NCBI GenBank assembly: GCA_965248965.1
Contig: CBDFKZ010000003.1
Span: 501,306-565,305 of the forward strand
Direction of reading: 5' to 3'
Length of the DNA stretch: 64,000 nucleotides
Source of the DNA: Sphingomonas sp.
GTDB taxonomy: Bacteria > Pseudomonadota > Alphaproteobacteria > Sphingomonadales > Sphingomonadaceae
Both the position numbers and the translations under genes were made by a program. The notes below the pieces were generated by a model. That model saw nothing but the letters and a program-made list of their open reading frames with translations. It was not told where the DNA came from and did not search any database. Of the stretch, positions 30,441-64,000 are shown piece after piece. Within the stretch, counting starts at the first letter, position 1, and every line of letters begins with the position of its first letter.

Positions 30441-31106
30441 TTGACCAATTGCGAGAAGCCGGTTCAGGTATCGCGAAGCGTCTATGTGATCGACGATAAC
30501 GCTGACGTCCGCAAATCCTTGCACTTCCTGTTATCCGTATCGTCGATCACGGCGTGGCCCTTCGCTACCGCGACCGATTTCATCGAACAGCTTCCCGAGC
30601 TGGTGCCCGGACCCATTCTTCTCGACGTCCGCATGCCGCAGATCGATGGCCTCGAGATGCTGTCGATGCTCAAGGAGCGCGCGGTCGACTGGCCCGTCAT
30701 CGTGATGACGGCGCACAGCGATGTGCGCATTGCCGTCGGTGCGATGAAGCTGGGCGCGATCGACTTTCTCGAGAAGCCGTTCAAGACAGAACTGCTCGAA
30801 AAAGTGCTCGACCAGGCGTTCTCGCTCATCGATCAGGCAGACGGCACGCTCCGCCTGCGCGCAGAGGCGCGCGAGCGTTTTGACCGGCTGTCGCGGCGCG
30901 AACGCGAGGTCATGGCCAGCCTTGCCGATGGTGCGCCGAACAAGGTGGCCGCGCGCGAGCTGGGTCTCAGCGCCCGCACGGTCGAGATGCACCGGGCAAA
31001 TGCGCTGGGCAAGCTGGGCCTGAAGAGCATCGCCGAAGTCGTGAAGCTGGAAGTCGCGGCCGGTTTTCTCGACCGCTCCCTCAGATCGCAGAACAGCCTC
31101 AACTAG
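30441..31106 (+). CDS. FixJ/NarL-like response regulator
   Basis: VIDD, LLDVRMP phospho-Asp, FLEKPF, LSRRERE...NKVAA...TVEMHR LuxR HTH. Confidence 0.93.
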   Translation: MTNCEKPVQVSRSVYVIDDNADVRKSLHFLLSVSSITAWPFATATDFIEQLPELVPGPILLDVRMPQIDGLEMLSMLKERAVDWPVIVMTAHSDVRIAVGAMKLGAIDFLEKPFKTELLEKVLDQAFSLIDQADGTLRLRAEARERFDRLSRREREVMASLADGAPNKVAARELGLSARTVEMHRANALGKLGLKSIAEVVKLEVAAGFLDRSLRSQNSLN

Positions 31107-31152
31107 CGGTTCGACGTCCTGCCGGTGATGTCGAGCGGTTTGCGTCGGCGGA

Positions 31153-32343
31153 TCAAGGAAATACAGCGGCAACGATGCCGGCGACGTCCTGGGCGTCGAG
31201 TTCGTCGATGTTGACTGCCATGTCGGGCACGACGCTGTACCCTGTCGTAGCCCCCGAGCGGTCGAGCGTGACGCTCATGATGCGATAGGCGTCGCCGAAG
31301 CGGATCGCGGCAAGGCTGCCCACTGTGGCCGGACGGTCCGGGTCGGCAATCACGATCGTGCTTGGCGGCAGGCCGGCGCCGAGCGTGGCGCGGCAGACGC
31401 GCAGTGCAAAGGCCCGCGGCCCCGCACCGGCCGGCGTCTCGACAATCGCGCCGGTGGGCTCGGTGGCAATCAGCCCGCCCTGCAAGGGTGCGCCGAGCAC
31501 GGACAGGCGGCGAGGCTCGGGCGACATCGGCGCGTCGGATGAGCGCGGCCTGTGCTCGACGCGTTGAGGTTTCGCTTGCTGAAGCGCGGACGCCTGCCGA
31601 GCCGGATCGTCGGATTCGCGGGCGGCCGCGCGCAACTCCAGGCGCAGCTCGGCGATCTTGTTGCGCGTACGCGACCATCTTGCTTCCGGATCGGTGATCG
31701 TGGCCACGAAAGTGTCGAACTCACCCATCAGATAGCGTTCGGCGAGCTGCGCGACCAGCGTCTCGGTATCGGCCACGCCGAACAGACGACAGATCGATGC
31801 GAGTGTGGCATCGTTCCAGCGGGTCAGCGGCTTCTGTGCATTTTCGAGGCGAGAGAGAATGACGGCCGGAAGACCGAATTCCTGGTCCAGTCGGGCAATG
31901 GTCAGGCTCCGGTCCTTGTTTCGCTGCCACCGCAGGGCCGCACCGAGCAGAACGGCGTTCCGTTCGTCCTGAACGTCCCAACTTCGCGGGTCGTGAAAGG
32001 GGTCCGCCCAGGCCGCGATGTCGAAATCGGGCGCATCGATGTCGATCAGGAGATGCTCGGGGGCGATGCCGAGCGCGTCCGCGATGCGGATCAGTTCGTC
32101 GGCCCGTGCCGAGACTTCGCCCCGCTCGATCTTCGAAAGCCGGATGTAGGGAATGTCGGCCAGCTGATTGCTGAGCGCCATGAGCTTGTACAGTCCGCGC
32201 GACTGCCGATGCTCACGCACGCGGTTGGGAAAGACGAAGCCGCGATATCGGTCCGGGCAGATTTCCTCGAGCGAACGTGCCGTTGCCAGTTGCGCGTCAA
32301 GCGCGCGCGGCGACCGGCCCGTCCCTCGGCTTGCTGTTGCCAT
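31153..32343 (-). CDS. Regulator with two XRE HTH domains and a degenerate S24-like C-terminal domain
   Basis: NRVREHRQSRG...RLSKIERGE; LGAALRWQR...ILSRLENAQ; AFALRV...IVIADPD. Confidence 0.8.
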   Translation of the reverse strand: MATASRGTGRSPRALDAQLATARSLEEICPDRYRGFVFPNRVREHRQSRGLYKLMALSNQLADIPYIRLSKIERGEVSARADELIRIADALGIAPEHLLIDIDAPDFDIAAWADPFHDPRSWDVQDERNAVLLGAALRWQRNKDRSLTIARLDQEFGLPAVILSRLENAQKPLTRWNDATLASICRLFGVADTETLVAQLAERYLMGEFDTFVATITDPEARWSRTRNKIAELRLELRAAARESDDPARQASALQQAKPQRVEHRPRSSDAPMSPEPRRLSVLGAPLQGGLIATEPTGAIVETPAGAGPRAFALRVCRATLGAGLPPSTIVIADPDRPATVGSLAAIRFGDAYRIMSVTLDRSGATTGYSVVPDMAVNIDELDAQDVAGIVAAVFP

Positions 32344-32441: not shown

Positions 32442-32933
32442 CTAATGGAGCACTTCGCTGGCTGGTGGCGCGACCAGATTTGCCCATACGCTGTTGGCGG
32501 CAAAGGGAAGCAGACAGGTCGTCGGACACAGCCCCGATTGGTGGCGCGCCAGCCAGCCGGGTGAGAGCGGCGAGGGGTTGTCCGATGAGAACGCAACCCC
32601 GCCGCCGTCGGTAAAAATCCCCAGCGCCGGTGGCAGTGCGTTCACGGGCCAGCGGCGCGCGATTTCGGCGAGCAGGACCACGGCGGCATCCTCCAGCGCG
32701 GCAAGGCTCCAGCTGAGCGGGTCGCCGGAGGAAATCGGCGCCAGATCGACGACGCGACAACTGCCGTCCCATGCGCTCGTGGTCAGCCTTGAGCGGTCGT
32801 CCGTCCCGGTAAGGGTGGCACTCAGCAATATGGCGCTGTTTGCCGCGAGAACCGGTCTTGCATGGAGGGCCAGGCGCTCGGCGATCCGGACCAACGCGGT
32901 GGGGGCACCGGGGAGCTTGCGCGCCCTGGACAT
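32442..32933 (-). CDS. Hypothetical protein
   Basis: 163 aa ORF filling the gap between the sigma and XRE genes, same strand; no motif recognised. Confidence 0.65.
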   Translation of the reverse strand: MSRARKLPGAPTALVRIAERLALHARPVLAANSAILLSATLTGTDDRSRLTTSAWDGSCRVVDLAPISSGDPLSWSLAALEDAAVVLLAEIARRWPVNALPPALGIFTDGGGVAFSSDNPSPLSPGWLARHQSGLCPTTCLLPFAANSVWANLVAPPASEVLH

Positions 32934-33068
32934 CGGTGCGCCGTGATGCGGGACGCTCCACCCGTTGGACGACTTCATGCGGCGCTTATCCCTTATATCA
33001 ACAATGCAGTACTGCGCCTGCTGTCACGCAAGGGGAGCACCGCAAGTGCGGGTGCTCCCAAACGGCCG

Positions 33069-34169
33069 TCAATGCCGGGCGGCGCTGCCCGGCGCGTTTC
33101 CGCCCAGCCGCTTCATGGCGGGAACCGGAGCGGGATTGGGGGCAATCGAGTCGATATCGACAAGCGAGGGATGCGACGCGGCCACCACATTGGCAGGTAT
33201 GGCAATGACGCGCGACAGCGTGTTGTGCGGCTGGCCTTCGGCAGGCAGCATCGACACCTTGGGCTGCTCGCCGGACACCTTGGGCGCACGCGTGCGGGCC
33301 GGCTTTGCGTAGCTTTTGCCGTATTCGGCCATTACGGCGAACTGCGGCTCGCTGGCGGCCAGTTCGGCGATCGACCGCGAGGCGCGCTTGGTGATCTGGC
33401 GGACACGTTCCTTCGTGACTCCGGTCGTCTCGCCAAGCTGGTCAAGCGTGTCGGCCTGGAAGACCCGACGCTCGACGATTTCGCGATCGCGATCCAGCTT
33501 TTGCTCGAGCTTTTCGAGTTCTTCGGGGCAGATGCCGTGCGTCCGCGTGCGGCGGAGCAGGGCGGCCGCGCGTTCGACCGGATCGGTCACCGACAGGCGT
33601 TTTGCCCGCGGCCGCTTGCGCAGCTGGTCAAGCGCGGCGGCGCGCTGATGATTGATATAGCCGTCCACGAGCGACCGGGTCGCCGCATGGGCAAGATAGT
33701 CGGACGCAGCGGATTCGGTGCGCGCCAGCGCGCATTCGTCCTCGATGATGGACTCGAGCGTGGATTCCTCGCCGTCGGCGCCCGACGTGACCGAGTGAAG
33801 GGAGACCGTCGTCGCCGCGACCTTCTTTGCCGAGGGACGCTGGTCGGTCATGACCCGGAAGCGAAGCGACTGAAGCTCGCCGCGGATCTGCCAGTTGACG
33901 AAGGTCGTGAAGAGTGCCTTTTCGGGGTCGTAACCCTGGATCGCCCGGTGCACGGCGATGGCGCAGCACTGCTCGGCGTCTTCCCAATGGGCCGTCAGGC
34001 CGTACTGGCGGATGAAATGGCGGATGCGCGGTGCGATCAGCTTGAGGATCGAGGCGAACGCCCGGTCCACGGCGGCACGCTGCCGCGCGCTGGACACGTC
34101 GTCACCCTTCGGCATGCTCTCGATGACTGCCGCAACGGCCGCCTCCAGCGCAATCGTGGTCTTTGACAT
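33069..34169 (-). CDS. Divergent sigma70-family RNA polymerase sigma factor
   Basis: Region 2 EDAEQ...VHRAIQGYDPEK...FTTFVNWQIRGE; region 3.2 VSLHS...STLESIIED; region 4.2 TLDQLGETTGVTKERVRQI. Confidence 0.85.
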   Translation of the reverse strand: MSKTTIALEAAVAAVIESMPKGDDVSSARQRAAVDRAFASILKLIAPRIRHFIRQYGLTAHWEDAEQCCAIAVHRAIQGYDPEKALFTTFVNWQIRGELQSLRFRVMTDQRPSAKKVAATTVSLHSVTSGADGEESTLESIIEDECALARTESAASDYLAHAATRSLVDGYINHQRAAALDQLRKRPRAKRLSVTDPVERAAALLRRTRTHGICPEELEKLEQKLDRDREIVERRVFQADTLDQLGETTGVTKERVRQITKRASRSIAELAASEPQFAVMAEYGKSYAKPARTRAPKVSGEQPKVSMLPAEGQPHNTLSRVIAIPANVVAASHPSLVDIDSIAPNPAPVPAMKRLGGNAPGSAARH

Positions 34170-34338
34170 GGTTAACCCCCAGAAAAGAAAAGCAGGTTGG
34201 CCCCGCGCCAACCGTCGCCCTCACCACGTCTTTCTGGCATCGGAGAGTTAATAGGAGTGTTATCATCCTATACGAAAATATACGTAACCATCCTATAAAA
34301 GCATGGTGCTGAGGATGTTTAGCGGCGAGTGGACCCGG

Positions 34339-35295
34339 TTAAGACGCGAAACGCCCCGGCGTTACGTGGCGATCGACATAGTCGAGCAGCCACGACCGAT
34401 GGGCGCTGGCGGCGTCGCCTGTCGCCGCAATCCGGCGGTTTGCGCTGGCCGTGCCGACCTGGGCATCGAGGAGGACCCTGGCGCGTCCACTGTCGAGCCC
34501 GCCCTTCAGGAAGCGTATCGCGTCGCCGGTCCCCAGGTGATGGCCGATATAGGCGGCGCGCGCCACCGTGGCGACGTCGCCGCCGATGGCGATCCCCGCA
34601 TTCTTCAGCTTTTCGACGCTCCGCAACGCATAGTCGGCGGTCGCGTTGATCGATGCGGATCCATCATAGCGGAGCGCCAGCAGCGCCGAGCGGGCAGCGG
34701 GGAGAATGCGTCCGTCACTGCCGAGCCAGCCCTGTCGACTGGCAACGCCGTTCAGCCAGGTACCCGCGCGCTCGGCCTCGCTCTGCCAGGTGCCGGCCAG
34801 AAACTGGCCGAGGCCGGCTGCGCTCGAGCGCGGATTGCGCGACGTCGTGTTCCATTTCCCGTCACAGTTCTTGCCCGCTTCCGCATCGACGATGGCGGCC
34901 AGGGCGGCAGGCGGCAGACCCGTGCGCTCTGCCGCGGCATGGATCGTGTCGCGATAGGCACTGTTGGGACCCAGGCCCGCAACGGGCGCGCTCGTCGAGG
35001 CGGCAACCGGCGACCCGGTCGCAACGGGAATCTCCGCCGCGGCAGCATCGTCTTTCACGGGATCGGCAGGCGTCGCTGCCGACGCTTTCGTCGACTGCGG
35101 CCCGAGCAGCGACAACAGCGAATCGAGATTGAACGTGTCGCAGCGCTGCGCCGATTGCGCCTGGTCTTCCGCATCGGATTCGCTGCCGAGTGCGGCGCGC
35201 CACAGACGCGCCGTTACGTCGCTCTGCGCCTGGGAATAGATGAGCGCGGCCTTTTCACTCGGGCTCATGCGGCTGAGATCGTTGGCAATCAGCAT
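34339..35295 (-). CDS. Lytic transglycosylase/muramidase, possible FlgJ-like rod peptidoglycan hydrolase
   Basis: AIVDAE catalytic Glu and SSAAGLGQF lysozyme-like motif; overlaps the fliJ stop. Confidence 0.75.
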   Translation of the reverse strand: MLIANDLSRMSPSEKAALIYSQAQSDVTARLWRAALGSESDAEDQAQSAQRCDTFNLDSLLSLLGPQSTKASAATPADPVKDDAAAAEIPVATGSPVAASTSAPVAGLGPNSAYRDTIHAAAERTGLPPAALAAIVDAEAGKNCDGKWNTTSRNPRSSAAGLGQFLAGTWQSEAERAGTWLNGVASRQGWLGSDGRILPAARSALLALRYDGSASINATADYALRSVEKLKNAGIAIGGDVATVARAAYIGHHLGTGDAIRFLKGGLDSGRARVLLDAQVGTASANRRIAATGDAASAHRSWLLDYVDRHVTPGRFAS

Positions 35296-35744
35296 GCGGC
35301 CGGCCCTTCAAGACGCCTTTGCCCCGCGCCGACACGATTTAGCCGGTTGAAACGCGCGGCCGAGAAGTCGTCGATCTGATCCTGCTCGGCCTTTGCCAGC
35401 ACAAGGCTCGCTTCGCTTCGAAAGCGATCGGCGGCGCCTTCGATAGCGGCCATTTCGCCAAAGGCCTTCGCCGCTTCCTGGCGAAGGCTGCCGAGCCGTG
35501 TTCCCACGGCGACGGCGTCGCGCACGATTTCCGTGCGCGCTGCGCGCATGCGCGCGCCAAAGGCCGGGGCCGCGCAGCGCCAGTCGCTGGCGGCGAGAAG
35601 TGCCTCGTCACGCAAAGAGGTCTCGATCGCCTGATGTCTTTGGCCGAGGATTTCGAGCTGATTCAGTTCGGCAGCGATCGACAGGCGCATCGCGTCGATC
35701 TGGCGCTGCAGCAGCCGCAGCACGGCATCATAGGGCGTTTTCAT
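35289..35744 (-). CDS. fliJ: Flagellar export protein FliJ
   Basis: Coiled-coil protein coupled to fliI, with EQDQIDD C-terminal motif. Confidence 0.7.
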   Translation of the reverse strand: MKTPYDAVLRLLQRQIDAMRLSIAAELNQLEILGQRHQAIETSLRDEALLAASDWRCAAPAFGARMRAARTEIVRDAVAVGTRLGSLRQEAAKAFGEMAAIEGAADRFRSEASLVLAKAEQDQIDDFSAARFNRLNRVGAGQRRLEGPAAC

Positions 35745-37066
35745 TCGGCGACCTCGAGCAGGGCCGCCAGTCGGGCGAAGCTGTCTTCGGGGGAGCCGCG
35801 GTCCTGCTTGGTCTGCGTCAGCAGTGCCTCGATCTGCGGTGCGAGCGCAATGGCGCGATCGACCTCTGCGTTCGCGCCGGCGGCATAGGCCCCCAGCCGC
35901 ACGATCTCTTCCATGTCGCCATAGGTCGACAATATCGACCGCGCAGCGAGGCGGAGCCGGTTCTGGTCGTCGTCGAGCGCGCCGGGAAGCGTGCGGGAAA
36001 CCGACTTCAATATGTCGATCGCCGGGTAGCGGCCGCGCTCGGCAATGCGTCGCGTAATGACGATATGCCCGTCCAATATGCCGCGTACGGCATCGGCAAC
36101 GGGCTCGTTATGGTCGTCGCCATCGACGAGCACGGTGAACAAGCCGGTTATCGAGCCCTGGCCCGGCAGTCCGGGGCCAGCGCGTTCGAGCAGGCGCGGC
36201 AGCTCGGCAAAGACGGTAGGTGTGTAGCCCTTGGTCGCGGCCGGTTCGCCGCTGGCGAGGCCGATCTCGCGCTGAGCCATGGCGAACCGGGTCACCGAGT
36301 CCATCAGGCACAGGACATTCAGCCCCTGATCGCGAAAATGTTCCGCAACCGCCATTGTCGTCCAGGCAGCCTGGCGGCGCATCAGTGCCGGCTCGTCGGA
36401 CGTCGCCACGACGACGACGCTGCGTGCCAGCCCTTCGGGTCCGAGGTCGTCCTCGACGAATTCCTGAACTTCACGGCCCCGCTCGCCGATCAGGCCGATG
36501 ACGGCGACGTCGCATCCTGTCCAGCGGGCAAGCATGGACAGCAGGACCGACTTGCCGACGCCGGAGCCGGCAAACAGACCCAATCGCTGCCCCTGGCAAA
36601 GCGGCGCAAAGATATCGAGGGCGCGGACTCCCGTTGCCACATAACTGCCGACGCGGGCGCGTTGCGCCGCCGGCGGCGGGGAGGCCTTGATGGGATAGAG
36701 GTCATGGCCGGGCAAGATCGCTCCCTTGCCGTCGATGGGGTTGCCGAGCCCGTCGACCATGCGGCCGAGCCAGGCGGCACCGGGCCGCACCGAAAAGCGG
36801 CCGGCGATCAGGTTTGCGCGCGCACCCGACATGATGCCCTGGGGGTCGCTGAAGGGCAGGCAGTGCGCCACGTCGCGATCGAGCCCCGTGACCTCGGCGG
36901 CGACAATGCCGTCGGCGGCAACGACGTCCACGTGCGACCCGATCTGGGCCGCCCCGGTCAATCCCTCGACCTCGATCAGGGCGCCCCGCACGCCGATCAC
37001 CCGACCGAAGCGCTGGTCGGGCACGTGTTCCCGCATCGTGCGCGCGGCAGCAGCAAGTGACCTCAT
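35741..37066 (-). CDS. fliI: Flagellar export ATPase FliI
   Basis: GLFAGSGVGKS, LIGERGREV, MDSVTRFAMAQREIG, LDGHIV. Confidence 0.97.
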   Translation of the reverse strand: MRSLAAAARTMREHVPDQRFGRVIGVRGALIEVEGLTGAAQIGSHVDVVAADGIVAAEVTGLDRDVAHCLPFSDPQGIMSGARANLIAGRFSVRPGAAWLGRMVDGLGNPIDGKGAILPGHDLYPIKASPPPAAQRARVGSYVATGVRALDIFAPLCQGQRLGLFAGSGVGKSVLLSMLARWTGCDVAVIGLIGERGREVQEFVEDDLGPEGLARSVVVVATSDEPALMRRQAAWTTMAVAEHFRDQGLNVLCLMDSVTRFAMAQREIGLASGEPAATKGYTPTVFAELPRLLERAGPGLPGQGSITGLFTVLVDGDDHNEPVADAVRGILDGHIVITRRIAERGRYPAIDILKSVSRTLPGALDDDQNRLRLAARSILSTYGDMEEIVRLGAYAAGANAEVDRAIALAPQIEALLTQTKQDRGSPEDSFARLAALLEVAE

Positions 37067-37074
37067 CGATCTGG

Positions 37075-37479
37075 TCAGGCAGCCTGGGGAACGGCGCGTT
37101 CAAGCGCCGTCGTCTCATAGTCGATCAGCACGCGGCAGTCGGCGAGGGCGCGATAATAATTGCCCGTTGCCACCTTGTGGGCGAACCGCGCGCACAAGGC
37201 CTTGGCCTCGAGGGATTCGAGCGCGCCGAGAAGGTCGCTCAGATACTGAATGATCGCATCCTGATGCTTGGTCTGCGACTTGGGGTCGATGTAGGCCATC
37301 ATGCAGGAAAAATAGAGCCGCCGCGCCGGTGTCACGGCGTCTTCCGCGGACATGACCTCGCGACCGCGCAGAAGAGAGACATTGTTCTCCACGATCAGGT
37401 CGGTGCGGCCGACCGCGCGCATCACGGCGCCGTTCACGATCATCTTCTCACCGTCGCGCAGGGAAATACGAAGCGTCAT
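37075..37479 (-). CDS. flbT: Flagellin translational regulator FlbT
   Basis: MTLRISLRDGEKMIVNGAV...TPARRLYF...YYRAL. Confidence 0.92.
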   Translation of the reverse strand: MTLRISLRDGEKMIVNGAVMRAVGRTDLIVENNVSLLRGREVMSAEDAVTPARRLYFSCMMAYIDPKSQTKHQDAIIQYLSDLLGALESLEAKALCARFAHKVATGNYYRALADCRVLIDYETTALERAVPQAA

Positions 37480-37639
37480 CACAGGTCCTTTGTGGCTTAG
37501 TGGTCTTATAGGATGGTGGCGCCCCGCAGGCGGCGCTTTGCCGAATTTTTGCCAAATGCCCCGACCCGGCAAAGTTCATCCTACAATTAAAGTCACGAGC
37601 GCCACCCGACGCTCAAATGCTTATTGCCGGAGAACCTTC

Positions 37640-38941: not shown

Positions 38942-38999
38942 TCGCATGAGCCGGGCAAGGAGCCGACGATAAGGGCTGCTACCAAGAGGAACTACAGAG

Positions 39000-41093: not shown

Positions 41094-41103
41094 GGAAAAA
41101 CCT

Positions 41104-48826: not shown

Positions 48827-48827
48827 C

Positions 48828-52447: not shown

Positions 52448-53137
52448 TTACGCTGCAGAAGCGAGGCCGATCAGCGTGTTGATCGGCAATTGGGCACCGT
52501 TTACGTCGAGCGAAATTCCGCCGTTTTCCGCGCTGATGCCCCCGACCGTGCCGACGCTGTGGATCGTTACCGGCACGGTCGCCCCAGCGGCATTCCGAGC
52601 GGTCATCGACAGAGTGTAGGCACCTGCCGGCGCCTTGTCGCCATTGGCGAGCGTGCCGTCCCAGCTGAAGCTGCCCTGGCGACCGCCAAGGTTCACGTCG
52701 CGCGTGTCGACCACGGCGCCCGCGGCGTTGGTGATCTGCATCTTGCCCGAAGCTACGGCGACGTCCGCCGAATAGGTCCAGCTCGCCGGCTTCGCGCCCA
52801 GCCCGGCCACCGCGGAGTTGAATTCGGCGTCCTTGCCGATGAAGCCCGATGCCTGGGCCATGGTCTGGTTCGTCAGGCTGGCAAGAATGTCCTTCAGCGT
52901 CGACGATTGCTGGACGGTCTGTTCGACCTGCGAATATTGCACGAGCTGCTGGGTATATTGCGCGCTGTCCATGGGGCTCAGCGGATCCTGGTTCTGCATC
53001 TGCGTCGTCAGAAGCTTCAGGAACATGTTGAAATCAGCGCCGATTGTGCCCTTCGGCGATGTACTGGCAGTCGCCAGCGACTGCAGGCCGGTGCTCGCCG
53101 AAGCCGGAAGGCTGGCTGAGGGAGAGATGAGTGTCAT
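52448..53137 (-). CDS. flgD: Hook capping protein FlgD
   Basis: FLKLLTTQMQNQDPLSPMD, QYSQVEQ, FSWDG. Confidence 0.96.
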   Translation of the reverse strand: MTLISPSASLPASASTGLQSLATASTSPKGTIGADFNMFLKLLTTQMQNQDPLSPMDSAQYTQQLVQYSQVEQTVQQSSTLKDILASLTNQTMAQASGFIGKDAEFNSAVAGLGAKPASWTYSADVAVASGKMQITNAAGAVVDTRDVNLGGRQGSFSWDGTLANGDKAPAGAYTLSMTARNAAGATVPVTIHSVGTVGGISAENGGISLDVNGAQLPINTLIGLASAA

Positions 53138-53149
53138 GTCGGCTGTTTC

Positions 53150-54520: not shown

Positions 54521-54590
54521 GCAATGCCTCTCATCGGGGCGCGCAGGCCCTTGTCTCTCTTATAGACGGCTGGCGCTGCAGACGGCCGAT

Positions 54591-56672: not shown

Positions 56673-56682
56673 CGGACGGTGC

Positions 56683-58023
56683 TCAATGCGCCGGCTCGAC
56701 GGCAATGCCGGCCTCGATGAATGTCCTCAGCTTGTTGCGCATCGTGCGCACCGAGATGCCGAGGATCGTCGAGGCCGTGGTGCGGTTGCCGCCGCAATGT
56801 TCGAGCGTGTGAAGGATCAGGTCGCGTTCGACATCGTCGACGGTGCGACCGACGAGGGACGCGGCCGGATCTCGGCCGATCGTGGGCTTCGATGCCCCCA
56901 GAGGCTTGCCGTCGGCCGCGACGATCGCGCTGCCCTGGATCCGTTCGCCCTGGGCAAGCAGGACGGCGCGATGGATCACGCTTTCGAGCTCGCGGACATT
57001 GCCGGGCCACTCATGGCGGGTGAGCGACTGTATGGCATCGGGCGCGAAGGGACGCGCGGCCAGGCCGTTCGCGGCGGCGAACCGCGCGCCGAAATATTGC
57101 GCGATGGCGATGATATCGTCGCCACGTGTGCGTAGCGGCGGTATCGCTACGCGGACGAGGGACAGGCGCGTAAGCAGGCTGCCGAGGAACTGCCCCTTGG
57201 CGACGAGGGCGTCGAGATCGACGGACGTGCCGGCGATGATGCGCGCGTGCGACATCGGGGCGCCGCCTTCGGCGGACCTCGCTTGCTGCACCTGGAGCAT
57301 CGTCAGCAGGCGCGCCTGGGTGGCGAGCGCCAGCGATCCGATTTCGCGCAAATAGATGGTGCCGTACCGGGCGTCCTCCAGCCCGCCACGGCGCGGCGCG
57401 ACGGCACCGGCGAAATCGCCGGCGCCATGGCCGAACAGTTCGGAGTCGATGATGTCGCTGCTCGTGCTGGCGCAGTCGACGGTCAGGAAGCGTCCGGTCC
57501 TTGCCGATGCGGCGTGCACGGTGCGGGCGAAGATTTCGCGACCGCTGCCGAGCTCCCCGCTGATGATAATGGGTGCGCTCGACGGCGCCATGGCAAGGCC
57601 GAGCGACAGCGCGCGACGCAGTTCCGGGTCGTCGCCGACGAGCCGGGCGCCATGCCGGGCCACCGACAGGATTGCCGCTGCAATGAGATCGGCCTGCGGC
57701 GGCAGCGGGACATAGTCGCGCGCGCCGCCCCGAATGGCGGCAACGGCGCGGTCGGCCGACGCGTCGATACCGCAGGCGATGACCGGGACGGCGATATGTT
57801 CGGCGCGGAGTTGCGCGATGAAGCGCGCAACGTCCTCGGCGACGTCGATCATGACAAGATCGCTGCCCGTGTCGCGCAATTTGCGAAGCGCCGTGCCGGC
57901 GTCGTCCGCCATGACGACATTGGCGCCGGTCTCTCGGGCCATCGCGGCGGCGGTGCGGAATTCGCTGCCGGGCGCGCCGACCAGAAGCATGTGAATGGAT
58001 CCGGTAGCCAGCACCACGCTCAA
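56683..58023 (-). CDS. flbD: FlbD-like regulator with degenerate AAA+ domain
   Basis: Receiver + AAA+ + Fis HTH (ILGISVRTMRNKL), downstream of fliN as in Caulobacter; catalytic motifs altered. Confidence 0.88.
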   Translation of the reverse strand: MSVVLATGSIHMLLVGAPGSEFRTAAAMARETGANVVMADDAGTALRKLRDTGSDLVMIDVAEDVARFIAQLRAEHIAVPVIACGIDASADRAVAAIRGGARDYVPLPPQADLIAAAILSVARHGARLVGDDPELRRALSLGLAMAPSSAPIIISGELGSGREIFARTVHAASARTGRFLTVDCASTSSDIIDSELFGHGAGDFAGAVAPRRGGLEDARYGTIYLREIGSLALATQARLLTMLQVQQARSAEGGAPMSHARIIAGTSVDLDALVAKGQFLGSLLTRLSLVRVAIPPLRTRGDDIIAIAQYFGARFAAANGLAARPFAPDAIQSLTRHEWPGNVRELESVIHRAVLLAQGERIQGSAIVAADGKPLGASKPTIGRDPAASLVGRTVDDVERDLILHTLEHCGGNRTTASTILGISVRTMRNKLRTFIEAGIAVEPAH

Positions 58024-58394
58024 TGCTCCTGGCGGACGATTTCGGTCAGCGTTACGCCAAGCGAATTCTCAATCATCACGACCTCGCCGCGGGCGATGAG
58101 GCGGTTGTTGACGAAGATGTCGACCGGCTCGCCGACGCGGCGATCGAGCTCGACCACGGCGCCCGCTTTCAGCTGCATCAGCGCGCCAATCGCAATGCGT
58201 GACCTGCCGAGCACGGCCTGTACCTTGACGGGCACGTCATAGACGGCCTCCAGGCGTTCGGCCGCCGCCTCGGGCGTCTCGCTTACCGGGTCGGGCCCGC
58301 CGAAATCCTCGAGCGGCGGCGGGTTACCGGGAAGGTTTTCCGCCAGCATCACTTCCTGCGCTTCGCTGTCCATGTTTTGGGGAGTCTCCATCAT
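58020..58394 (-). CDS. fliN: Motor switch protein FliN
   Basis: AVYDVPVKVQAVLGRS...GEPVDIFVNNRLIARGEVV. Confidence 0.95.
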   Translation of the reverse strand: MMETPQNMDSEAQEVMLAENLPGNPPPLEDFGGPDPVSETPEAAAERLEAVYDVPVKVQAVLGRSRIAIGALMQLKAGAVVELDRRVGEPVDIFVNNRLIARGEVVMIENSLGVTLTEIVRQEH

Positions 58395-60031
58395 GCGTTC
58401 ATCCACTGGCGGATCACCGACGCCGCTTCGGCGGGGCTTTCACTGACCGATGTGCCGATCTTCTTGAGCGACGACAGTTTGATGCGGCCGTCGACCTGGG
58501 CGAGGGCGATTTCCTGGTCGAGCAACGCGGTGTCTTCGCCCGCGACCCGCATCGCGTCGATCTGTTGCAGCGCTTCGGGGTCGCCGCTGGCGATCCGCGT
58601 CGCGAGTGCCTGCGCGTCGGCCGTCTGGTTCGTCAGCAGGCGTTCGTCGTCGGCACGCTGGCCGGGCTTGGGTCGCAGCATGCGCATGGCAATCAGTCCC
58701 GCCCCGGCGATCACCAGCAATTTCAGCAGGCTGAATATCTGATCGGCCGAGATCCAGGAGACATAGGACATGAGCCCGCCTTGTCCGTCGCCAGCCGCGT
58801 CGGCTGCGGCAAAGGCCATGTTCTCGACGACGACGCTGTCACCGCGTGCCTGGTCGAAACCGACCGCATTCTGGACGAGGCGCGTCAGCCTCGCGATCTC
58901 GGGTGCCGGCAGGCCTTTCTTGCCGCCGTCGACCATGACCGCGACGGTCAGCCGCGTCAGCTTGCCCGGTGCGCGCACCGTGATGGTGTGCGTCTGGCTG
59001 TTCTCGTACGTCGTGTCCTCGGACGTCTCGTTGCGTGCGGACTTGCGGGTGTCGCCGCCGCCAGCGCCGGTCCCCGCAGCGCCCTGGTTTTCGGGGAGCT
59101 GCGTGCCGACGGAAACGCCGGCCGGGGCAGGGCCGTTCTCGTTGCTCTGGTCGCCGCTTTCGACGGTGACCTGATGGCCGATCACCTGCTTGTCGGGATC
59201 GAAGACATTGGTTTCCTCGCGGGTCTGGTCGCGCGCGACCTGAGCCGACACTTCGGCGCGAACCTTGCCAATGCCGACGATCGGTTCGAGCATTCCTTCG
59301 ATCTGCGATCGAACACGGTTCTCGATGCCGGTCTGGCGCTCGTCCGCCGCAGAGGCGCCTGCGTCGTCGGCATCTCCCGCCCGCGCGAGCAACGCGCCGG
59401 TCTGGTCGACGATCGACACCTGTTCGGCCGAAAGTTCCGGCACCGACGAGGAGACGAGATAGCGGATCGCCTGTACCGCGCTGGCGGGAAGCCGTCCGCG
59501 CGTCTTGAGCGACACGGCCGCGGTGGCCTTGCGCGTCTCGGCGGCGAACATCGCCCGTTCGGGCATGACGATATGCACGCGCGCCTTGGCCACATTGTCG
59601 AGGCTCTGAAGCGACTTTTCGAGTTCGCCTTCGATCGCGCGCGTCTCGTTCATGCGCGCGCGCGACGACGACACGCCGAACGGCTGTTCCGCGTCGAGCA
59701 CTTCGTAGCCGACCTTGCCGCTCAACTTGTCGGCAGCCATCGCCATGCGCAGCTCGGGCAATTTGTCCTTCGGCGCCATGATCGACGTGCCATCGGCGGA
59801 AAGCTGGAACGGCACGTTCTGCGCAGTCAGCTTGGCGGTGATCGCCTGCGCGGTCGAGGCATCGAGGTCGGTATAGAGAAAGCCCATTTCGCTGGATCCG
59901 CCGCGCATGGCGACGGTCGCGAGCACGCCGAGGAGGGCGAGGGCGACACCGCCCATGATGAAGAGGCGCCGCGACCCCAGCTGCGCGAAAAATTTCTGCA
60001 ATCCGTCCAAGACCGGCTCCGCCACTGACAC
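58391..60031 (-). CDS. fliF: MS-ring protein FliF
   Basis: Two TM helices, GYEVLD, RAIEGEL, ARVHIV, RLTVAVMVDG, NAVGFDQARGD. Confidence 0.96.
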   Translation of the reverse strand: MSVAEPVLDGLQKFFAQLGSRRLFIMGGVALALLGVLATVAMRGGSSEMGFLYTDLDASTAQAITAKLTAQNVPFQLSADGTSIMAPKDKLPELRMAMAADKLSGKVGYEVLDAEQPFGVSSSRARMNETRAIEGELEKSLQSLDNVAKARVHIVMPERAMFAAETRKATAAVSLKTRGRLPASAVQAIRYLVSSSVPELSAEQVSIVDQTGALLARAGDADDAGASAADERQTGIENRVRSQIEGMLEPIVGIGKVRAEVSAQVARDQTREETNVFDPDKQVIGHQVTVESGDQSNENGPAPAGVSVGTQLPENQGAAGTGAGGGDTRKSARNETSEDTTYENSQTHTITVRAPGKLTRLTVAVMVDGGKKGLPAPEIARLTRLVQNAVGFDQARGDSVVVENMAFAAADAAGDGQGGLMSYVSWISADQIFSLLKLLVIAGAGLIAMRMLRPKPGQRADDERLLTNQTADAQALATRIASGDPEALQQIDAMRVAGEDTALLDQEIALAQVDGRIKLSSLKKIGTSVSESPAEAASVIRQWMNA

Positions 60032-60105
60032 CGGGCTGCAAAGCCCGTCAGATCATTATAGGAGGAAGCGGTGGGAAAAATTTGCCGGGTAGGAAATTCT
60101 TGCCG

Positions 60106-60786
60106 TCAGGCGGGGTCAGCCGTCGCCTCGGCCGCCGCCGGCACGTCGAGGCCAAGTTCGGTCAGGATCGCCGCCCGGCGCGCCTCGGCGTTGAGCGCAA
60201 GGCCTCCCTGCTCCCAGGAAATCAGGGCATCGCCAATGGCCTGTGTTGGATCGCCGATGGCAAGCAACGACAGGCGACGCCGCTCGCGCCCCTGCCGCCC
60301 GGCGATCAACTCCTCTGTCGCCTCGAGCAGCGACGGATGAACCCGGATCTGCAATTCCTGCCCGCGGGCAACTTGTGTGAGCACACGGCCGATGGCTTCG
60401 TCGATAGCTGCAGTCGGGTCGCTTTCCAGCGCGCGAGCAGCCAGCCCCTCTGCAGCGGCCATCGCGACTTCGGCGGCGGCGCGCGACGTGCGCAGCTCGA
60501 CGGCCTCGAATTCGTTCTCCACGGCTTCGATCGAGCTGTGCAGTGCGTCGGTTGCCGCGAGCATCGCCGCGTTGACCTCCCCGCGCGCATGCGCAAGTCC
60601 GGCCTCGAAGCCTTCGGCACGGGCAACCGCGACATTCGTCTCGAGCATCGATCGCAACAGGTCGACCTCGGCGGTCAGGGCCATGATGCGTTCGCTGTCG
60701 TTCTGTCCGGGCGCCGCGCGCGCGGGGCTGGCCGCCGCGAAGACGCGATCGAAAGCAAACGGCTTGATGTGAAATGACTGGTCCAA
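60106..60786 (-). CDS. fliH: FliH (FlbE-like)
   Basis: IKPFAFDRVF N-terminus, GFEAG, GDALISWEQGG. Confidence 0.85.
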   Translation of the reverse strand: MDQSFHIKPFAFDRVFAAASPARAAPGQNDSERIMALTAEVDLLRSMLETNVAVARAEGFEAGLAHARGEVNAAMLAATDALHSSIEAVENEFEAVELRTSRAAAEVAMAAAEGLAARALESDPTAAIDEAIGRVLTQVARGQELQIRVHPSLLEATEELIAGRQGRERRRLSLLAIGDPTQAIGDALISWEQGGLALNAEARRAAILTELGLDVPAAAEATADPA

Positions 60787-60813
60787 ATGCCGTCCCCGTC
60801 CCGTTCGCTCAGT

Positions 60814-61863
60814 CTACAGGATCATCGCGTCGTCGTTCTTCGGATCGACGAGCATGATTTCGCCGCTGTCGGCGAGTTGCTTGGCAAGCCGGACGAGTGC
60901 GCTTTGAGCCTCTTCGCATTCGCGCGCGCGCACCGGACCCATCGCCGCCATGTCTTCCTTGAGCAGCTTGGACGCGCGTTCGGTCATCGCCCCGAAGAAA
61001 AGGTCGCGCATCGGCGCCGGCGCCCCCTTCAGGGCGAGCGCCATTTCGCGCTTGTCGGCGTTGCGGACGATCGTGGCGACGGCCGGTTGCATCAGGTTAC
61101 CGAGATCCTCGAAGGTGAACATCAGCGCGCGGATCCGTTCGGCAGCGTCGGGCGCCTTTTCGTCGAGCGCCGACAGCATGGCTTCCTCGGTCGCGCGGTC
61201 GAGCGCGTTGAACACTTCTGCCATTGTTTCGTGCGGGTCGCGCCGCTGCGAGCGTGACAGGTTGCTCATGAACTCGTTCTTCAGCGTATGCTCGACCTCG
61301 ACCAGCACCTTTTTCTGGACGGTATCCATGCGGAGCATGCGCATGATGACGTCGACCGACAAGTCGCGCGGCAGCTCCGCCAGGACGCGTGCGCCGTGGT
61401 CGGGCTTGAGCTTGCTCAGGATGACGGCGACGGTCTGGGGATATTCGTTCTTCAGATAGTTGGCGAGGACGTTTTCGCTGACGTTGGACAATTTGTCCCA
61501 CATCGTGCGGCCTGAGGGGCCGCGGATGTCCTCCATGATTTCCTTAACCCGGTCGTCGGGCAAGATGCCGTCGAGCAGCCGCTCGGTCGTTTCGAACGAT
61601 CCATGCAACGACGCCATGCTCGAAATCTCGCCCGAAAACTGGACGAGCAAGTGTTCGACGACGACCGAGGGCACACGGCCCAGCTGCGCGATGGCCGCCG
61701 ACAGCTCGCGCACCTCGTCGTTGGACAGCATTTCCCAGATGGGCGCGCCGTGTTCCTTTCCCAGCGCCAGCATCAACGCAGCAGCCTTTTCGTGGCCGGA
61801 AAACTTCTTCAGCTCGGCAGGCGGATTACTCAGCGCCAACATACTCTTTCGGCTCCCAGACAT
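60814..61863 (-). CDS. fliG: Motor switch protein FliG
   Basis: EKAAALMLALG, EYPQTVAVIL, MFTFEDL, NMTE-like AMTERAS, EEAQ. Confidence 0.96.
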   Translation of the reverse strand: MSGSRKSMLALSNPPAELKKFSGHEKAAALMLALGKEHGAPIWEMLSNDEVRELSAAIAQLGRVPSVVVEHLLVQFSGEISSMASLHGSFETTERLLDGILPDDRVKEIMEDIRGPSGRTMWDKLSNVSENVLANYLKNEYPQTVAVILSKLKPDHGARVLAELPRDLSVDVIMRMLRMDTVQKKVLVEVEHTLKNEFMSNLSRSQRRDPHETMAEVFNALDRATEEAMLSALDEKAPDAAERIRALMFTFEDLGNLMQPAVATIVRNADKREMALALKGAPAPMRDLFFGAMTERASKLLKEDMAAMGPVRARECEEAQSALVRLAKQLADSGEIMLVDPKNDDAMIL

Positions 61864-61947
61864 ATAATGAAGGTTAACGCGTCATCACGGCGGCACATGC
61901 GTCTATTATAGGAAGGAGAAGACGCGCGGAGCTCAAGCGGTGATCTT

Positions 61948-64000
61948 ATGACGGTAAATCTTTCAAACGGCCTGGCCGCCCTGTCGATGCTGTCGAACAC
62001 GAACAGCTATGCCGATTTTGCAACCCCGGCAGCGCCGGAATCGCTTGCCGTCCGCAAGGCGAAGGCTCAGTTCACGCTTGCGCCCACGACCCCGCCCTGG
62101 AAGCAGCCTGCGACGAAGACGCCCGAAGCTTCCCGTATCACGGCGATCAAGCAGCTCAGCACCATCATCGACAATACCACGACGTCGCCCACTGCCGGCT
62201 CGCGCGATGTCCAGACTGCGTTCACAACCTACAAGGCGCTCGACAAGCTGATGCTGCTGGCGACGGCCGCGTCGCGGACGACGACAACCGACAGCGAGCA
62301 CGTCAGCCTGCAGACGGCATTCGCCAAAGGGCTGAGCGATCTGCAGCAGTTCCTGGGCCAAGCCGGGTCGGACAAGGTCAATTTGTCGTTCGGGCTTCCC
62401 ACGCGCCGGGCGGAGACCGTGCCGATAACGCCGTCCGATCCGGTCAAGTTCACCGGCAAGGGCATCGTCGACGCGCGCGACGCGCCGCTGCCGCTCGACG
62501 GAACCGAAGTTTTCAAGATCTCGCTCGACAAGCCGGGTGCGAGCGACACGCTGACCATCGACATGTCGAAGGTCGTGCTGCCGGCAACGCTCGATCGATT
62601 GTCGAGCGCCTTCAACGATGCCATCAAGGCGATCGAACTGCGCAAGCCCGATGGCTCGGTCGTGCTCGACGACAACGGCAATCCGACGCCCCGCTGGCTC
62701 GTTCGCTTCCTGCCCGACAAATCCACGGGCAAATGGGGGCTGTCCGTGCAGGCGCCGAACGGCGCCGAGCGCGTCTCGATCGATCAGGTCGGTGCGCCCG
62801 ACGCGCTCGTCGTCGCCACCGGGCAAACGGCGGTGGGCGCTGCGCCGGTGACGCAAATGCTGCGCTTCAACGACGCTGCCGGCGACCTGGCCCGCGATCC
62901 GCTGGCGACGATCGCCGCGACCGACACCGCGGGAACGGCGCGTGCGAAGCTGACGGCGACGAAGCCCAAAACCCTTCCCGGCACCACGCCGCCGCCGGCA
63001 CCCGGTCCCCTGCAGGCCGCAACGACCACGCAAGCGATCACGACCGACGCTGCCGGTAACACCTATCTCGTCGGCACGACGGCCGGCGACCTTCAGTCCA
63101 ACCGGTCGAGCGGTTCGGAAGATCTCTTCCTGACGAAGCTCGACAGCGAAGGTGCCGTGGTCTGGCAACGCAGCCTCGGTGCGCCCGCGGGCGCAAAAGG
63201 TGCAGCCATTGCCGTCGCTGCCAATGGCGATGTCACGGTTGCGGGCACGGTGACGGGCATGCTGGATGGGCAGAGCACCGACGGCGACATGGTCGTTGCG
63301 CGCTACGCCGCAAATGGCGACGAGAAGTTCGCCACGGTGTTGCAGTCGGCAGGTCCCGACAGCGCCAATGCGCTGGCGCTGGGCGCCGATGGCTCGGTCT
63401 TTGTCGGCGGCAAGGCCGCGACCGGCGGCGGCGATGCGTTTGTCGCGCGCCTCGACGCATCCGGCAAGGTCCAGCAACGCCGCACGATCGACGGCGGCGG
63501 CAGCGATTCCGTCACCGCGCTGGCCGTGGACGGCGACGGCAATTTGCTTGCCCTCATCAACAGCAACGGCGTGGCGCAGCTGCGGCGTCTGAGCTCGGAC
63601 GCGCTTGGTACCGAGCTCGGTAGCCTTTCGCTCGGCCAGGCCGATGCGCGCGCACTCGCCGTGGCGCCCGATGGCCAGATCGCTGTCGCCGGCGCAACCA
63701 GCAAGGCGCTGAACGGCGCACAGGCGAATTCGAGGAGCGACGGGCGCGACGGCTTTGTCACGCGGATCAACAGCGCGCTTGGCAACGCCACGACCACCTA
63801 TATTGCAACGCCCGCCGACGACCAGGTCGACAGCGTCGCGTTCATGAACGGTGCGATCTATGCCGGCGGCCGCACCGCCGGGGCGATCGAAGGCAACCGC
63901 ATCGGCTCGGTCGACGGCTTTGTTGCCCGGCTCGACGCCGCCAGCGGCGGCATTCAGGACGTGACCCAATTCGGCCAGCAGGCGATGTCGAGCGAACCCG
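61948..64000 (+). CDS. Large SBBP beta-propeller repeat protein, FlaEY-like (runs off the window end)
   Basis: Frame from ATG 61948, translated at its start and around 63.0 kb, with no stop seen: TTPPW N-terminal motif and repeats such as ITTDAAGNTYLVGTT...DLFLTKLDSEG. It is absent from the ORF track, consistent with no stop inside the window. Confidence 0.8.
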   Translation, partial: MTVNLSNGLAALSMLSNTNSYADFATPAAPESLAVRKAKAQFTLAPTTPPWKQPATKTPEASRITAIKQLSTIIDNTTTSPTAGSRDVQTAFTTYKALDKLMLLATAASRTTTTDSEHVSLQTAFAKGLSDLQQFLGQAGSDKVNLSFGLPTRRAETVPITPSDPVKFTGKGIVDARDAPLPLDGTEVFKISLDKPGASDTLTIDMSKVVLPATLDRLSSAFNDAIKAIELRKPDGSVVLDDNGNPTPRWLVRFLPDKSTGKWGLSVQAPNGAERVSIDQVGAPDALVVATGQTAVGAAPVTQMLRFNDAAGDLARDPLATIAATDTAGTARAKLTATKPKTLPGTTPPPAPGPLQAATTTQAITTDAAGNTYLVGTTAGDLQSNRSSGSEDLFLTKLDSEGAVVWQRSLGAPAGAKGAAIAVAANGDVTVAGTVTGMLDGQSTDGDMVVARYAANGDEKFATVLQSAGPDSANALALGADGSVFVGGKAATGGGDAFVARLDASGKVQQRRTIDGGGSDSVTALAVDGDGNLLALINSNGVAQLRRLSSDALGTELGSLSLGQADARALAVAPDGQIAVAGATSKALNGAQANSRSDGRDGFVTRINSALGNATTTYIATPADDQVDSVAFMNGAIYAGGRTAGAIEGNRIGSVDGFVARLDAASGGIQDVTQFGQQAMSSEP

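Follow-up and report, generated by a model that had tools for sequence, protein, structure and literature searches.

Flagellar regulation in the Alphaproteobacteria is usually described in terms of two schemes, the Caulobacter cascade leading from CtrA to sigma-54 and FlbD, and the rhizobial one. The present analysis concerns a 64-kb stretch of the genome of a Sphingomonas sp. (positions 501,306 to 565,305 of contig CBDFKZ010000003.1, assembly GCA_965248965.1), referred to below as the window and numbered from its first nucleotide. The flagellar half of the window holds an alpha-type (Caulobacter-like) gene set that, judging from the sequence, appears to be no longer transcribed through sigma-54. 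In place of sigma-54 promoters stand copies of a short directional box, the resident FlbD is altered at residues on which sigma-54 activation depends, and a gene for a divergent sigma-70-family sigma factor is embedded among the flagellar genes. From the association of this gene with the box, and from the -10-like nature of the box, we infer that the embedded sigma factor reads it, a link that we hold to be moderately probable.

A Conserved Box Before Flagellar Transcription Units

The pattern YCCTAYAAK occurs seven times in the window, against 0.40 expected, and none of 100 shuffled sequences reached seven. Six of these matches are intergenic, oriented toward a gene, and located 12-52 nt before its start, namely before flbT, flgE, a small membrane-protein operon, fliL, fliF, and fliG. 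These numbers bear out the initial annotation of the window, which had noted a shared box before most operons. TATAAK hexamers show a similar distribution, with nine of the ten in the window falling in the flagellar half. Overall, a directional 9-bp sequence, TCCTAYAAK, lies 12-60 nt before the start codon of nearly every transcription unit.

The box of flbT (TCCTATAAG, 37505..37513, minus strand) stands 25 nt before the ATG and is conserved in 63 orthologous gaps. Across the same gap, the box of flgE-flgK-flgL (TCCTACAAT, 37579..37587, plus strand) stands 52 nt before the TTG at 37640, with the conserved consensus caTCCTAcAAT. The box of the small membrane-protein gene (CCCTATAAT, 44174..44182, minus strand) is located 28 nt upstream and overlaps CTCTATTAT on the opposite strand, which faces orf160. 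The sequence TCCTATAAT serves three further minus-strand units: fliL (47193->47185, 12 nt before the gene, in the fliL/flgF gap, and conserved in Sphingomonas sp. BK036, locus L016), fliF (60063->60055, 23 nt before the gene), and fliG (61905..61913, 41 nt before the gene, with a box at the same position in Iodidimonas). Other units carry variants that differ from YCCTAYAAK mostly at one position. These were found for fliK (GTCTATAAG, 54567->54559, minus strand; the identical variant precedes fliX in Iodidimonas), the flagellin gene (TCCCACAAT, 50169-50177, plus strand), a candidate small RNA (sRNA; TTCTATAAT, 52391->52383, minus strand), orf178 (TGATATAAG), the gene for the tandem helix-turn-helix (HTH) regulator XRE2 (TCCTATATC), the sigma gene itself (TCCTATTAA), and flaEY (ACATATAAT).

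Several boxes are accompanied by GGCAAA-N-TTTGCC palindromes, termed ftr-like here for their apparent resemblance to the Caulobacter ftr element, which occur at fliF, fliL/flgF, and flbT/flgE. The elements GCCGAATTTTTGCC and GGCAAAGTTC lie between the divergent flbT/flgE promoters (37527..37580), the palindrome GGCAAATTCTGCC (47203-47215) lies in the fliL/flgF gap and is conserved in BK036, and the repeats CGGCAAATTTTTCC and CGGCAAGAATTTCC are found just upstream of the fliF box (within 60055..60104, minus strand).

To follow the box beyond the window, one genome per species was scanned, yielding 235 sigma-encoding loci, 80 of which (1.48 Mb) were analyzed. The flbT-flgE gap could be extracted from 63 of the 80. 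In these gaps, the flanks have diverged around a footprint consisting of TCCTATAAg beside flbT, caTCCTAcAAT beside flgE, and the palindrome CCCGGCAAATTTTGCC between them. The 80 loci contain 153 exact boxes, nearly all at flbT, flgE, sigma, and orf178; the remaining, distal boxes precede motA (two loci), methyl-accepting chemotaxis protein genes (three), and GGDEF-EAL genes (three). When 29 diverse promoters were aligned on the box, no conserved -35 and no other shared element emerged. TATAAG variants are common among the sites, and a G at -7 would be unfavourable for RpoD. By these comparisons, the box has been preserved across genomes and delineates a motility regulon, and it can already be used to predict which genes of these genomes belong to that regulon.

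The box also occurs in a different order. In Iodidimonas sp. SYSU 1G8, a 21-kb locus was examined in which flaEY is followed by fliG-fliH-fliF-fliN-flbD-flhA-fliK-flgD, matching the window, and then by an XRE2 orthologue, flaF, motA, and che genes, with fliX and flgI upstream. Six exact TCCTATAAT boxes precede flgI, fliG, fliF, fliK, motA, and flaF at distances of 40-60 nt, and CCCGGCAAA..TTTCC repeats lie upstream of fliF, as in the window. No sigma-54-like site occupies an intergenic promoter position in this locus. Because the Iodidimonas locus has the box, a degenerate FlbD, and XRE2, these three occur together in two orders.

Side observations on the promoters include an arrangement common to three divergent gaps (44168-44182, 47183-47195, and 61903-61915), which share the sequence (G/C)TCTATTATAGG(A/G). 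In each, YCCTATAAT on the minus strand shares bases with (G/C)TC-TATTAT on the plus strand, the latter facing orf160, flgF, and flaEY, respectively, and the divergent promoters may share one AT core. The tRNA-Tyr promoter (9749-9815, minus strand), the sole housekeeping promoter inspected for contrast, reads TTGACA-N17-CAATGA; its strong -35 and weak -10 represent the opposite design to that of the flagellar boxes. In four loci (L037 12945, L047 12871, L032 4684, and L009 13105), a GGDEF-EAL gene with its own box directly follows XRE2, which ties the module to cyclic di-GMP (c-di-GMP) turnover.

Sigma-54 Promoters and the Altered FlbD

In Caulobacter, the hook operon has a textbook sigma-54 promoter. 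A search for TGGCACN5TTGCW with up to two mismatches returned 21 matches in the window, compared with 27 in shuffled sequence; two of these fall in the flagellar half, and none in a flagellar intergenic gap. Likewise, GG-N10-GC within three mismatches was absent from all 57 orthologous flbT-flgE gaps searched. The earlier remark that no flagellar gap has a convincing -24/-12 site is therefore upheld, and Caulobacter-type promoters of this kind are missing from the hook, rod/ring, and flagellin genes alike. The same scan recovered a near-consensus sigma-54 promoter, TGGCACgcttaTTGAT (15673-15688, minus strand), 22 nt before glnB (15312-15650, minus strand), which is followed by glnA (13867-15297, minus strand). 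This is the best -24/-12 match in the window, and it precedes genes that are typically controlled by sigma-54. The presence of sigma-54 (RpoN) in the organism is therefore very likely, and the recovery of this positive control indicates that the scan is able to find sites. The sigma-28 pattern TAAA-N15-GCCGATAA occurred at chance level in the window, with no match in the flagellar gaps.

The state of FlbD is in keeping with a lack of sigma-54 promoters at the flagellar genes of the window. The top-scoring model for the window protein is the Caulobacter FlbD model NF050807 (440 bits against a cut-off of 750), and the synteny fliN-flbD-flhA is shared by the window and Iodidimonas; on both counts, the protein can be placed in the FlbD orthologue group. 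Alignment to ZraR and NtrC1 revealed changes in Walker A (GELGSGRE for the canonical GxxGxGKE, a K->R exchange), in the GAFTGA loop (GDFAGA), in Walker B (RE, within YLREIG, for DE), and in the first Arg finger (Leu). Neither the GAFTGA loop nor the Walker B hhhhDE signature of an enhancer-binding protein is thus present in this protein, hereafter FlbD*, whose Fis-type HTH is intact.

These changes extend beyond the window. The 120 best orthologues, which belong to Sphingomonadales wherever an organism is given, all have Arg for the Walker B Asp (120/120), and GAFTGA is altered in 118, mostly to GAFPGA or GAFAGA, with Pro or Ala in most cases taking the place of Thr. Most of these proteins keep the Walker A Lys and the two Arg fingers, the Walker A K->R exchange being found in the window protein and its nearest relatives. 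In a search that covered 1.8 billion cluster representatives, the nearest 50%-identity clusters, about 15 in number, all have the Walker B Arg and an altered GAFTGA, and canonical FlbD-like proteins (GAFTGA, DE) start at about 43% identity. The degenerate clade takes in Sphingorhabdus and Iodidimonas, with GAFEGA and LRD in the protein of Iodidimonas sp. SYSU 1G8. The initial annotation had described FlbD as lacking its catalytic and sigma-54-contact residues. For the Walker B Asp and the GAFTGA loop this description stands for the clade, but it does not extend to general decay, given the mostly intact Walker A Lys and Arg fingers. Those bacterial enhancer-binding proteins (bEBPs) that have been studied depend on the Walker B Asp and on the Thr of GAFTGA to hydrolyse ATP and to contact sigma-54. 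The FlbD* clade is therefore predicted to be unable to activate sigma-54, and the label "sigma-54-dependent transcriptional regulator" given to these proteins by PGAP is probably wrong.

The Embedded Sigma Factor

The embedded gene (33069..34169, minus strand) encodes a divergent sigma-70-family protein of 366 aa, with sigma2 at residues 1-110, a linker and long helix, sigma4 at residues 215-282, and a disordered C-terminal tail. Region 4 is recognized by Pfam (Sigma70_r4, E=1.7e-8, 34.3 bits against a cut-off of 24.1), and region 2 scores under the cut-off (Sigma70_r2, E=0.003, 17.7 bits against 24). In the PDB, the only sequence matches (E about 1e-5) cover region 4 and come from RpoS, RpoH, and SigA. 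The protein falls under the cut-off of every NCBIfam sigma family, including the extracytoplasmic function (ECF) family (TIGR02937, 39.6 bits against 42.9), from which it also departs by its length, its linker and helix of about 100 aa, and its 85-aa tail, as well as RpoH (TIGR02392, 33 against 323) and FliA/WhiG (TIGR02479, 24.9 against 189.6). The box resembles -10 elements of the CYTATNT kind, which are associated with RpoH. An AlphaFold2 model built with 14 homologues shows the domain layout given above, with a confident helical sigma2 and a tail of 85 disordered residues, and the top Foldseek matches of this model are sigma factors (probability 0.99-1.0, with low TM-scores). The family numbers about 700 proteins in the protein collection, all under generic names, and literature searches found no papers on it. 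Across 81 sequences, sigma2 is at least 95% invariant, which matches the invariance of the box. The tail (residues 283-366, window 33069-33320) has a conserved LP..(Q)PHN.L.RV.A motif and frequently ends in ...ARH. Such a tail might bind a partner, or might mark the protein for degradation or export.

The genomic setting of this gene is strongly conserved. Among the 80 loci, the genes immediately upstream of sigma include orf318 in 70, fliJ in 68, and fliI in 67, and flgE is found in 63. With two loci cut at a contig end set aside, the order fliI-fliJ-orf318-sigma is present in 70 of the 78 informative loci. Linkage to flagellar clusters in other genomes, on which the initial annotation had staked its proposal, is thus confirmed. 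In the remaining eight loci, sigma stands alone among housekeeping genes such as sucB/lpdA or dienelactone hydrolase, and for six of these eight lone copies, the genome has a flagellar-linked copy as well. The idea that the lone copies form a non-flagellar subfamily was rejected, as their branches in the sigma tree fall inside flagellar-linked clades. Given this nesting and the second copies in six of the eight cases, the lone copies are recent, lineage-specific duplicates, and the flagellar linkage is ancestral. Second copies away from flagellar genes were seen in L044, L045, L076, L077, L079, and L081, beside sucB/lpdA or dienelactone hydrolase/FUSC.

Upstream of sigma (34248..34299), a sense variant box, CTCCTATTAA (34257->34248), is combined with two antisense-oriented boxes, TCCTATAC (34266-34273) and TCCTATAAA (34291-34299), in an inverted-repeat arrangement; across loci, TATAGGA-N10-12-TCC(T/G)(A/T)TTAA is conserved at this place. 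The two antisense-oriented boxes point into the 3' end of orf318, opposite to the sigma gene, and similar boxes are conserved in other loci. They could represent an antisense promoter or half of an operator.

A further element upstream of sigma is related to CtrA. The ungapped sequence TTAACCAT has been named as a CtrA motif (PMC6180460). It occurs within 300 nt upstream of sigma in 27 of the 78 loci, against 0.009 expected per 300 bp, and these 27 are drawn from 45 occurrences in all loci; the lineage of the window is without it. The motif is kept about 153 nt upstream of sigma in three of the loci with displaced copies (L076, L077, and L081) and in the rearranged L074. In the flagellar half of the window, TTAA-N7-TTAA, the element associated with direct CtrA control of the fla2 type, is matched only by two overlapping sites with one mismatch, both upstream of fliC, and the flagellar promoters as a whole do not fit this type of control. 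In Sphingomonas sp. WG, the CckA-ChpT-CtrA pathway affects flagellar gene expression (PMC8921679), an effect with which CtrA-like sites at sigma and flagellin are consistent.

Proposed Mechanism and Alternative Explanations

In the mechanism proposed here, the embedded sigma factor would bring RNA polymerase to TCCTAYAAK, which would serve as an extended -10 promoter with no need of a -35, and would in this way drive the whole flagellar, chemotaxis, and c-di-GMP regulon. FlbD*, predicted to be unable to remodel the sigma-54 holoenzyme and still equipped with its Fis-type HTH, would act as an ATPase-dead protein that binds the ftr-like GGCAAA-N-TTTGCC palindromes at fliF, fliL/flgF, and flbT/flgE and activates or represses transcription there in the conventional manner, probably with FliX still exerting control. 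Expression of sigma would be fed by CtrA in the many lineages with TTAACCAT upstream, and its level or activity would probably also be set by XRE2, possibly by orf178, and by the inverted box repeats in its own promoter. For flagellin, a weaker box variant would be combined with a CtrA-like site, and FlbT/FlaF would exert post-transcriptional control via a conserved 5' untranslated region (UTR). A broader formulation, put forward tentatively and with slightly less confidence than we would need to call it probable, is that this lineage is the master flagellar sigma of the Sphingomonadales and perhaps the Iodidimonadales, reading TCCTAYAAK at early, middle, and late flagellar genes and at motA, chemoreceptor, and c-di-GMP genes; sigma-54 would have been replaced ancestrally, FlbD kept as an ATPase-dead, FliX-gated DNA-binding checkpoint, and XRE2 recruited.

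Several points weigh against a reading of the box by the embedded sigma factor. Its own promoter carries the different-looking variant TCC(T/G)(A/T)TTAA. In the clade that has CTC/NNC for TCC, no co-varying sigma residues and no clade-specific substitutions were found. A perfect TATAAT is also the RpoD consensus, so the housekeeping sigma with an activator could read it, and XRE2, which is as widely conserved as the box, could be its reader as well. Contigs from two metatranscriptomes, described below, offer no usable 5' ends. The rewiring from sigma-54/FlbD to a dedicated sigma70-family regulon that the initial annotation envisaged consequently holds in its linkage, in the state of FlbD, in the box, and in the lack of sigma-54 promoters, while the step from sigma factor to box keeps the status of a proposal.

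If RpoD were the reader, the box would be a strong -10 in -35-less promoters activated at the palindromes by FlbD*, or by CtrA or XRE2, and the embedded sigma factor would serve only a subset of genes or a different, so far unrecognized promoter. We regard this as unlikely, yet it deserves the most attention among the alternatives. TATAAT is the universal RpoD -10, several boxes have a palindrome 35-50 bp upstream, where class I/II activators typically bind, and the deviant promoter of sigma itself is unlike the regulon box. There is also precedent among bEBP relatives: Vibrio VpsR and Caulobacter NtrC are AAA+/Fis-HTH proteins without the GAFTGA contact that are reported to act at sigma-70-type promoters. 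However, the invariant TCC at -15 to -13 differs from the extended -10 of RpoD (TGn), many sites read TATAAG or TACAAT, and many box promoters are without a palindrome. Moreover, hardly any box was found at non-motility genes in 1.5 Mb, and this explanation gives no function to a sigma gene that has been kept within the cluster nearly unchanged.

It is still less probable that the box is a transcription-factor site, most plausibly for XRE2, rather than a promoter element. XRE2 does co-occur with the system in two orders, with 47% identity between Sphingomonadales and Iodidimonas, and the inverted repeats TATAGGA-N10-12-TCCTAT upstream of sigma look operator-like. Elsewhere, however, the box is single, -10-like, strictly oriented toward a gene, and set at promoter distance; divergent genes each have their own copy, and no dyad partner is conserved in the 29 aligned promoters. 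Continued use of sigma-54 and FlbD through atypical -24/-12 promoters, with the changes in FlbD tolerated, seems very improbable. In its favour, the glnB promoter makes it probable that the organism has sigma-54, and most orthologues have an unaltered Walker A and Arg fingers, but such an account has to contend with the lack of GG-N10-GC sites in the 57 flgE/flbT gaps and in the flagellar gaps of the window, the Walker B exchange in 120 of 120 orthologues, and the loss of the GAFTGA Thr in 118 of them.

Comparison With Known Systems

The cluster is closest in content to that of Caulobacter crescentus, in which CtrA acts through FlbD/FliX and sigma-54, followed by FlbT/FlaF. The two have in common the order fliF..fliN-flbD-flhA together with flbT and flaEY, with fliX and flaF present in the Iodidimonas locus; an FlbD whose orthology follows from its top-scoring model and its gene order; ftr-like palindromes at fliF and the hook operon; and, in many lineages, a CtrA motif upstream of the top regulator. 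The systems differ in that -24/-12 promoters are missing here at hook, flagellin, and other genes, that FlbD is without the Walker B Asp and the GAFTGA Thr, and that a sigma-70-family gene and a 9-bp box stand in place of sigma-54 promoters. The placement of a sigma-70-family factor within flagellar genes recalls FliA (sigma-28) and FlgM of gamma- and betaproteobacteria and Firmicutes, and the regulon proposed here would, as with FliA, also include motA, chemoreceptors, and flagellin. Unlike FliA, however, the present factor scores outside the family (24.9 against 189.6 bits), has 366 aa with a long disordered tail, and is not accompanied by TAAA-N15-GCCGATAA promoters; the box also precedes the early genes fliF, fliG, and fliL, and no FlgM was recognized here.

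FlbD* has counterparts among other regulators derived from bEBPs. It shares the loss of GAFTGA with VpsR and NtrC, but constitutes a separate lineage, with a clade-wide Walker B D->R exchange and a location inside a flagellar operon. NtrC/HupR of Rhodobacter capsulatus are likewise bEBP-derived and sigma-54-independent, having lost the GAFTGA contact and acting at sigma-70-type promoters.

Expression of an alpha-type flagellar set without RpoN has a precedent in the fla2 system of Rhodobacter (Cereibacter) sphaeroides, which is without FlbD and is driven by CtrA, with CtrA boxes at divergent promoters (PMC6180460). In contrast, CtrA-like sites in the window occur only at fliC (in other lineages, upstream of sigma), and a different box dominates. 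In Azospirillum brasilense, the ECF sigma factor RpoE6 is encoded in a flagellin cluster, has an anti-sigma partner, and controls a minor flagellin and metabolic genes (PMC12826043). RpoE6 is thus another alternative sigma factor beside flagellar genes in an alphaproteobacterium, but it belongs to an unrelated family and does not govern the whole flagellar regulon. According to the same paper, of December 2025, no flagellum-specific sigma factor had been known in the Alphaproteobacteria before RpoE6 (PMC12826043). The work on Sphingomonas sp. WG assumes a Caulobacter-like scheme with FlbD as a sigma-54 activator (PMC8921679).

The initial annotation had spoken of a third regulatory architecture. 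The literature searches yielded no description of the embedded sigma factor, but the count needs revision, as the RpoN-independent fla2 system is already known in the Alphaproteobacteria, and the rhizobial schemes and RpoE6 exist as well. The system is best regarded as a flagellar hierarchy under a dedicated alternative sigma factor combined with a re-purposed enhancer-binding protein, the key connection between sigma factor and box being putative. If this connection proves true, an order of bacteria that is very common in the environment and on plants would control all of its motility genes through a new sigma family whose promoter is unusually simple. The system would then also exemplify a clean evolutionary switch from sigma-54 to control of the sigma-70 type, in which the former activator was kept and given a new job.

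Organization of the Flagellar Locus and Neighbouring Regulators

Genes were called from codon-position GC and then assigned with Pfam and NCBIfam profiles. The G+C content of the window is 62-70%. The first 30 kb are occupied by housekeeping genes (secY, rpoA, tRNA-Tyr, glnB-glnA, and oxoprolinase), and from 30.4 kb onward the profiles identify an alpha-type flagellar cluster on a Sphingomonadales chromosome; the nearest relatives of all cluster proteins are from Sphingomonas and other Sphingomonadales. The alpha-type structural set noted by the initial annotation (a Flj-like flagellin, flbT, flbD, fliL-fliM-DUF6468-motE, and a FlaEY-like gene) is thus real.

The flbT-fliI-fliJ-orf318 operon (34339..37479, minus strand) comprises flbT (37075-37479), fliI (35741-37066), fliJ (35289-35744), and orf318 (34339-35295). 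FlbT is supported at E=1.5e-36 and fliI by ATP-synt_ab and T3SS_ATPase_C, FliJ is a weak match, and the order is conserved in relatives. Divergently from flbT run flgE, beginning with the TTG at 37640, flgK, and flgL, which encode the hook and hook-associated proteins (37640..42012, plus strand; Pfam). Frame analysis and translation delimit the small membrane protein (43936-44145) followed by a secreted protein of about 600 aa (42055-43860; both minus strand), a pair to which no family could be assigned and that tblastn found conserved in 31 loci. Further Pfam-assigned units are fliL-fliM-orf138-motE-like (44629..47172, minus strand; orf138 a weak DUF6468 match), flgF-flgG-flgA-flgH (47255..50091, plus strand), flagellin (fliC; 50268..51122, plus strand; Flagellin_N/C), fliK-flgD with its variant box (52448..54567, minus strand), and fliG-fliH (60106..61863, minus strand). 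The fliF-fliN-flbD*-flhA operon (54591..60031, minus strand) was assigned with Pfam and NCBIfam, flbD* lying at 56683-58023. Two ORFs without an assigned family sit between flagellin and flgD-fliK. The last gene (61948..64000, plus strand), cut by the window end, is taken as a FlaEY orthologue on the strength of 44% identity to an Iodidimonas protein that carries Pfam FlaEY_3rd.

The sigma gene is accompanied by other regulators. The XRE2 gene (31153..32343, minus strand) encodes tandem HTH domains (Pfam HTH_31/HTH_3) and a C-terminal domain that may be S24/LexA-like. It follows sigma in 48 of the 80 loci, and its orthologue beside flgD in Iodidimonas is 47% identical over the full length. XRE2 has no sequence relative in the PDB, and a single-sequence AlphaFold2 model (pLDDT 41.7) gave no reliable fold. 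Between sigma and XRE2 lies the fast-evolving orf178 (32442..32978, minus strand), speculatively a candidate partner or anti-sigma factor; it is detectable by tblastn in 37 of the 80 loci at 28-82% identity and has no Pfam, NCBIfam, or PDB match. A FixJ/NarL-type response regulator gene (30426..31106, plus strand, start codon uncertain; Pfam Response_reg and GerE) scores 205 bits against the NCBIfam FixJ cut-off of 255 and is a high-identity neighbour only in L002 and L003, the two closest relatives. The co-location of sigma factor, XRE regulator, unassigned ORF, and FixJ noted by the initial annotation is therefore real as to presence. Sigma is linked in 70 of 78 loci, and XRE2, present in 48 and also in Iodidimonas, is likewise conserved, but neither FixJ nor orf178 belongs to the conserved set. 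An AT-rich, non-coding stretch of 850 bp (29580-30425) separates the FixJ-type gene from the oxoprolinase gene. It is not conserved even where sigma is 95-97% identical, and is therefore probably a variable junction.

The Candidate Small RNA and the Flagellin Control Region

A candidate sRNA of about 115 nt, predicted from sequence, was located at 52265-52384 (minus strand) behind the variant box TTCTATAAT, which includes TATAAT, in agreement with the initial annotation. The predicted fold (z = -9.0) consists of a 5' hairpin, a CU-rich linker, and a strong intrinsic terminator. A 14-bp stem closes a 25-nt loop composed almost entirely of C (AUCCCCCACCCCCACCCCGCCCCCAC), and a CU-rich stretch, CCUUCCCC, is single-stranded; these C- and CU-rich parts could pair with Shine-Dalgarno sequences. 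Rfam returned nothing above threshold in 29.5-64 kb, the candidate included. No reads of the candidate were found in two freshwater metatranscriptomes, whose short unitigs cover only the flagellin gene. Several contigs from these two data sets are 99-100% identical to 50214-51176, representing flagellin transcripts of this organism or of a very close relative.

The flagellin control region (50110..50177, plus strand) begins with the CtrA-like CTAAcccacagTTAAC (50110-50124), continues with the variant box, and is followed by a structured 5' UTR. The CtrA-like sites, the variant box, and the structured 5' UTR are all conserved in Sphingomonas sp. BK036. Within the 5' UTR (50185-50267), the hairpins GGGCCAGCGCTTCTGGCCC / GGTCGCAGAAGCGACC recur in BK036 (L016 18620-18710), and this leader is a likely target of FlbT/FlaF.

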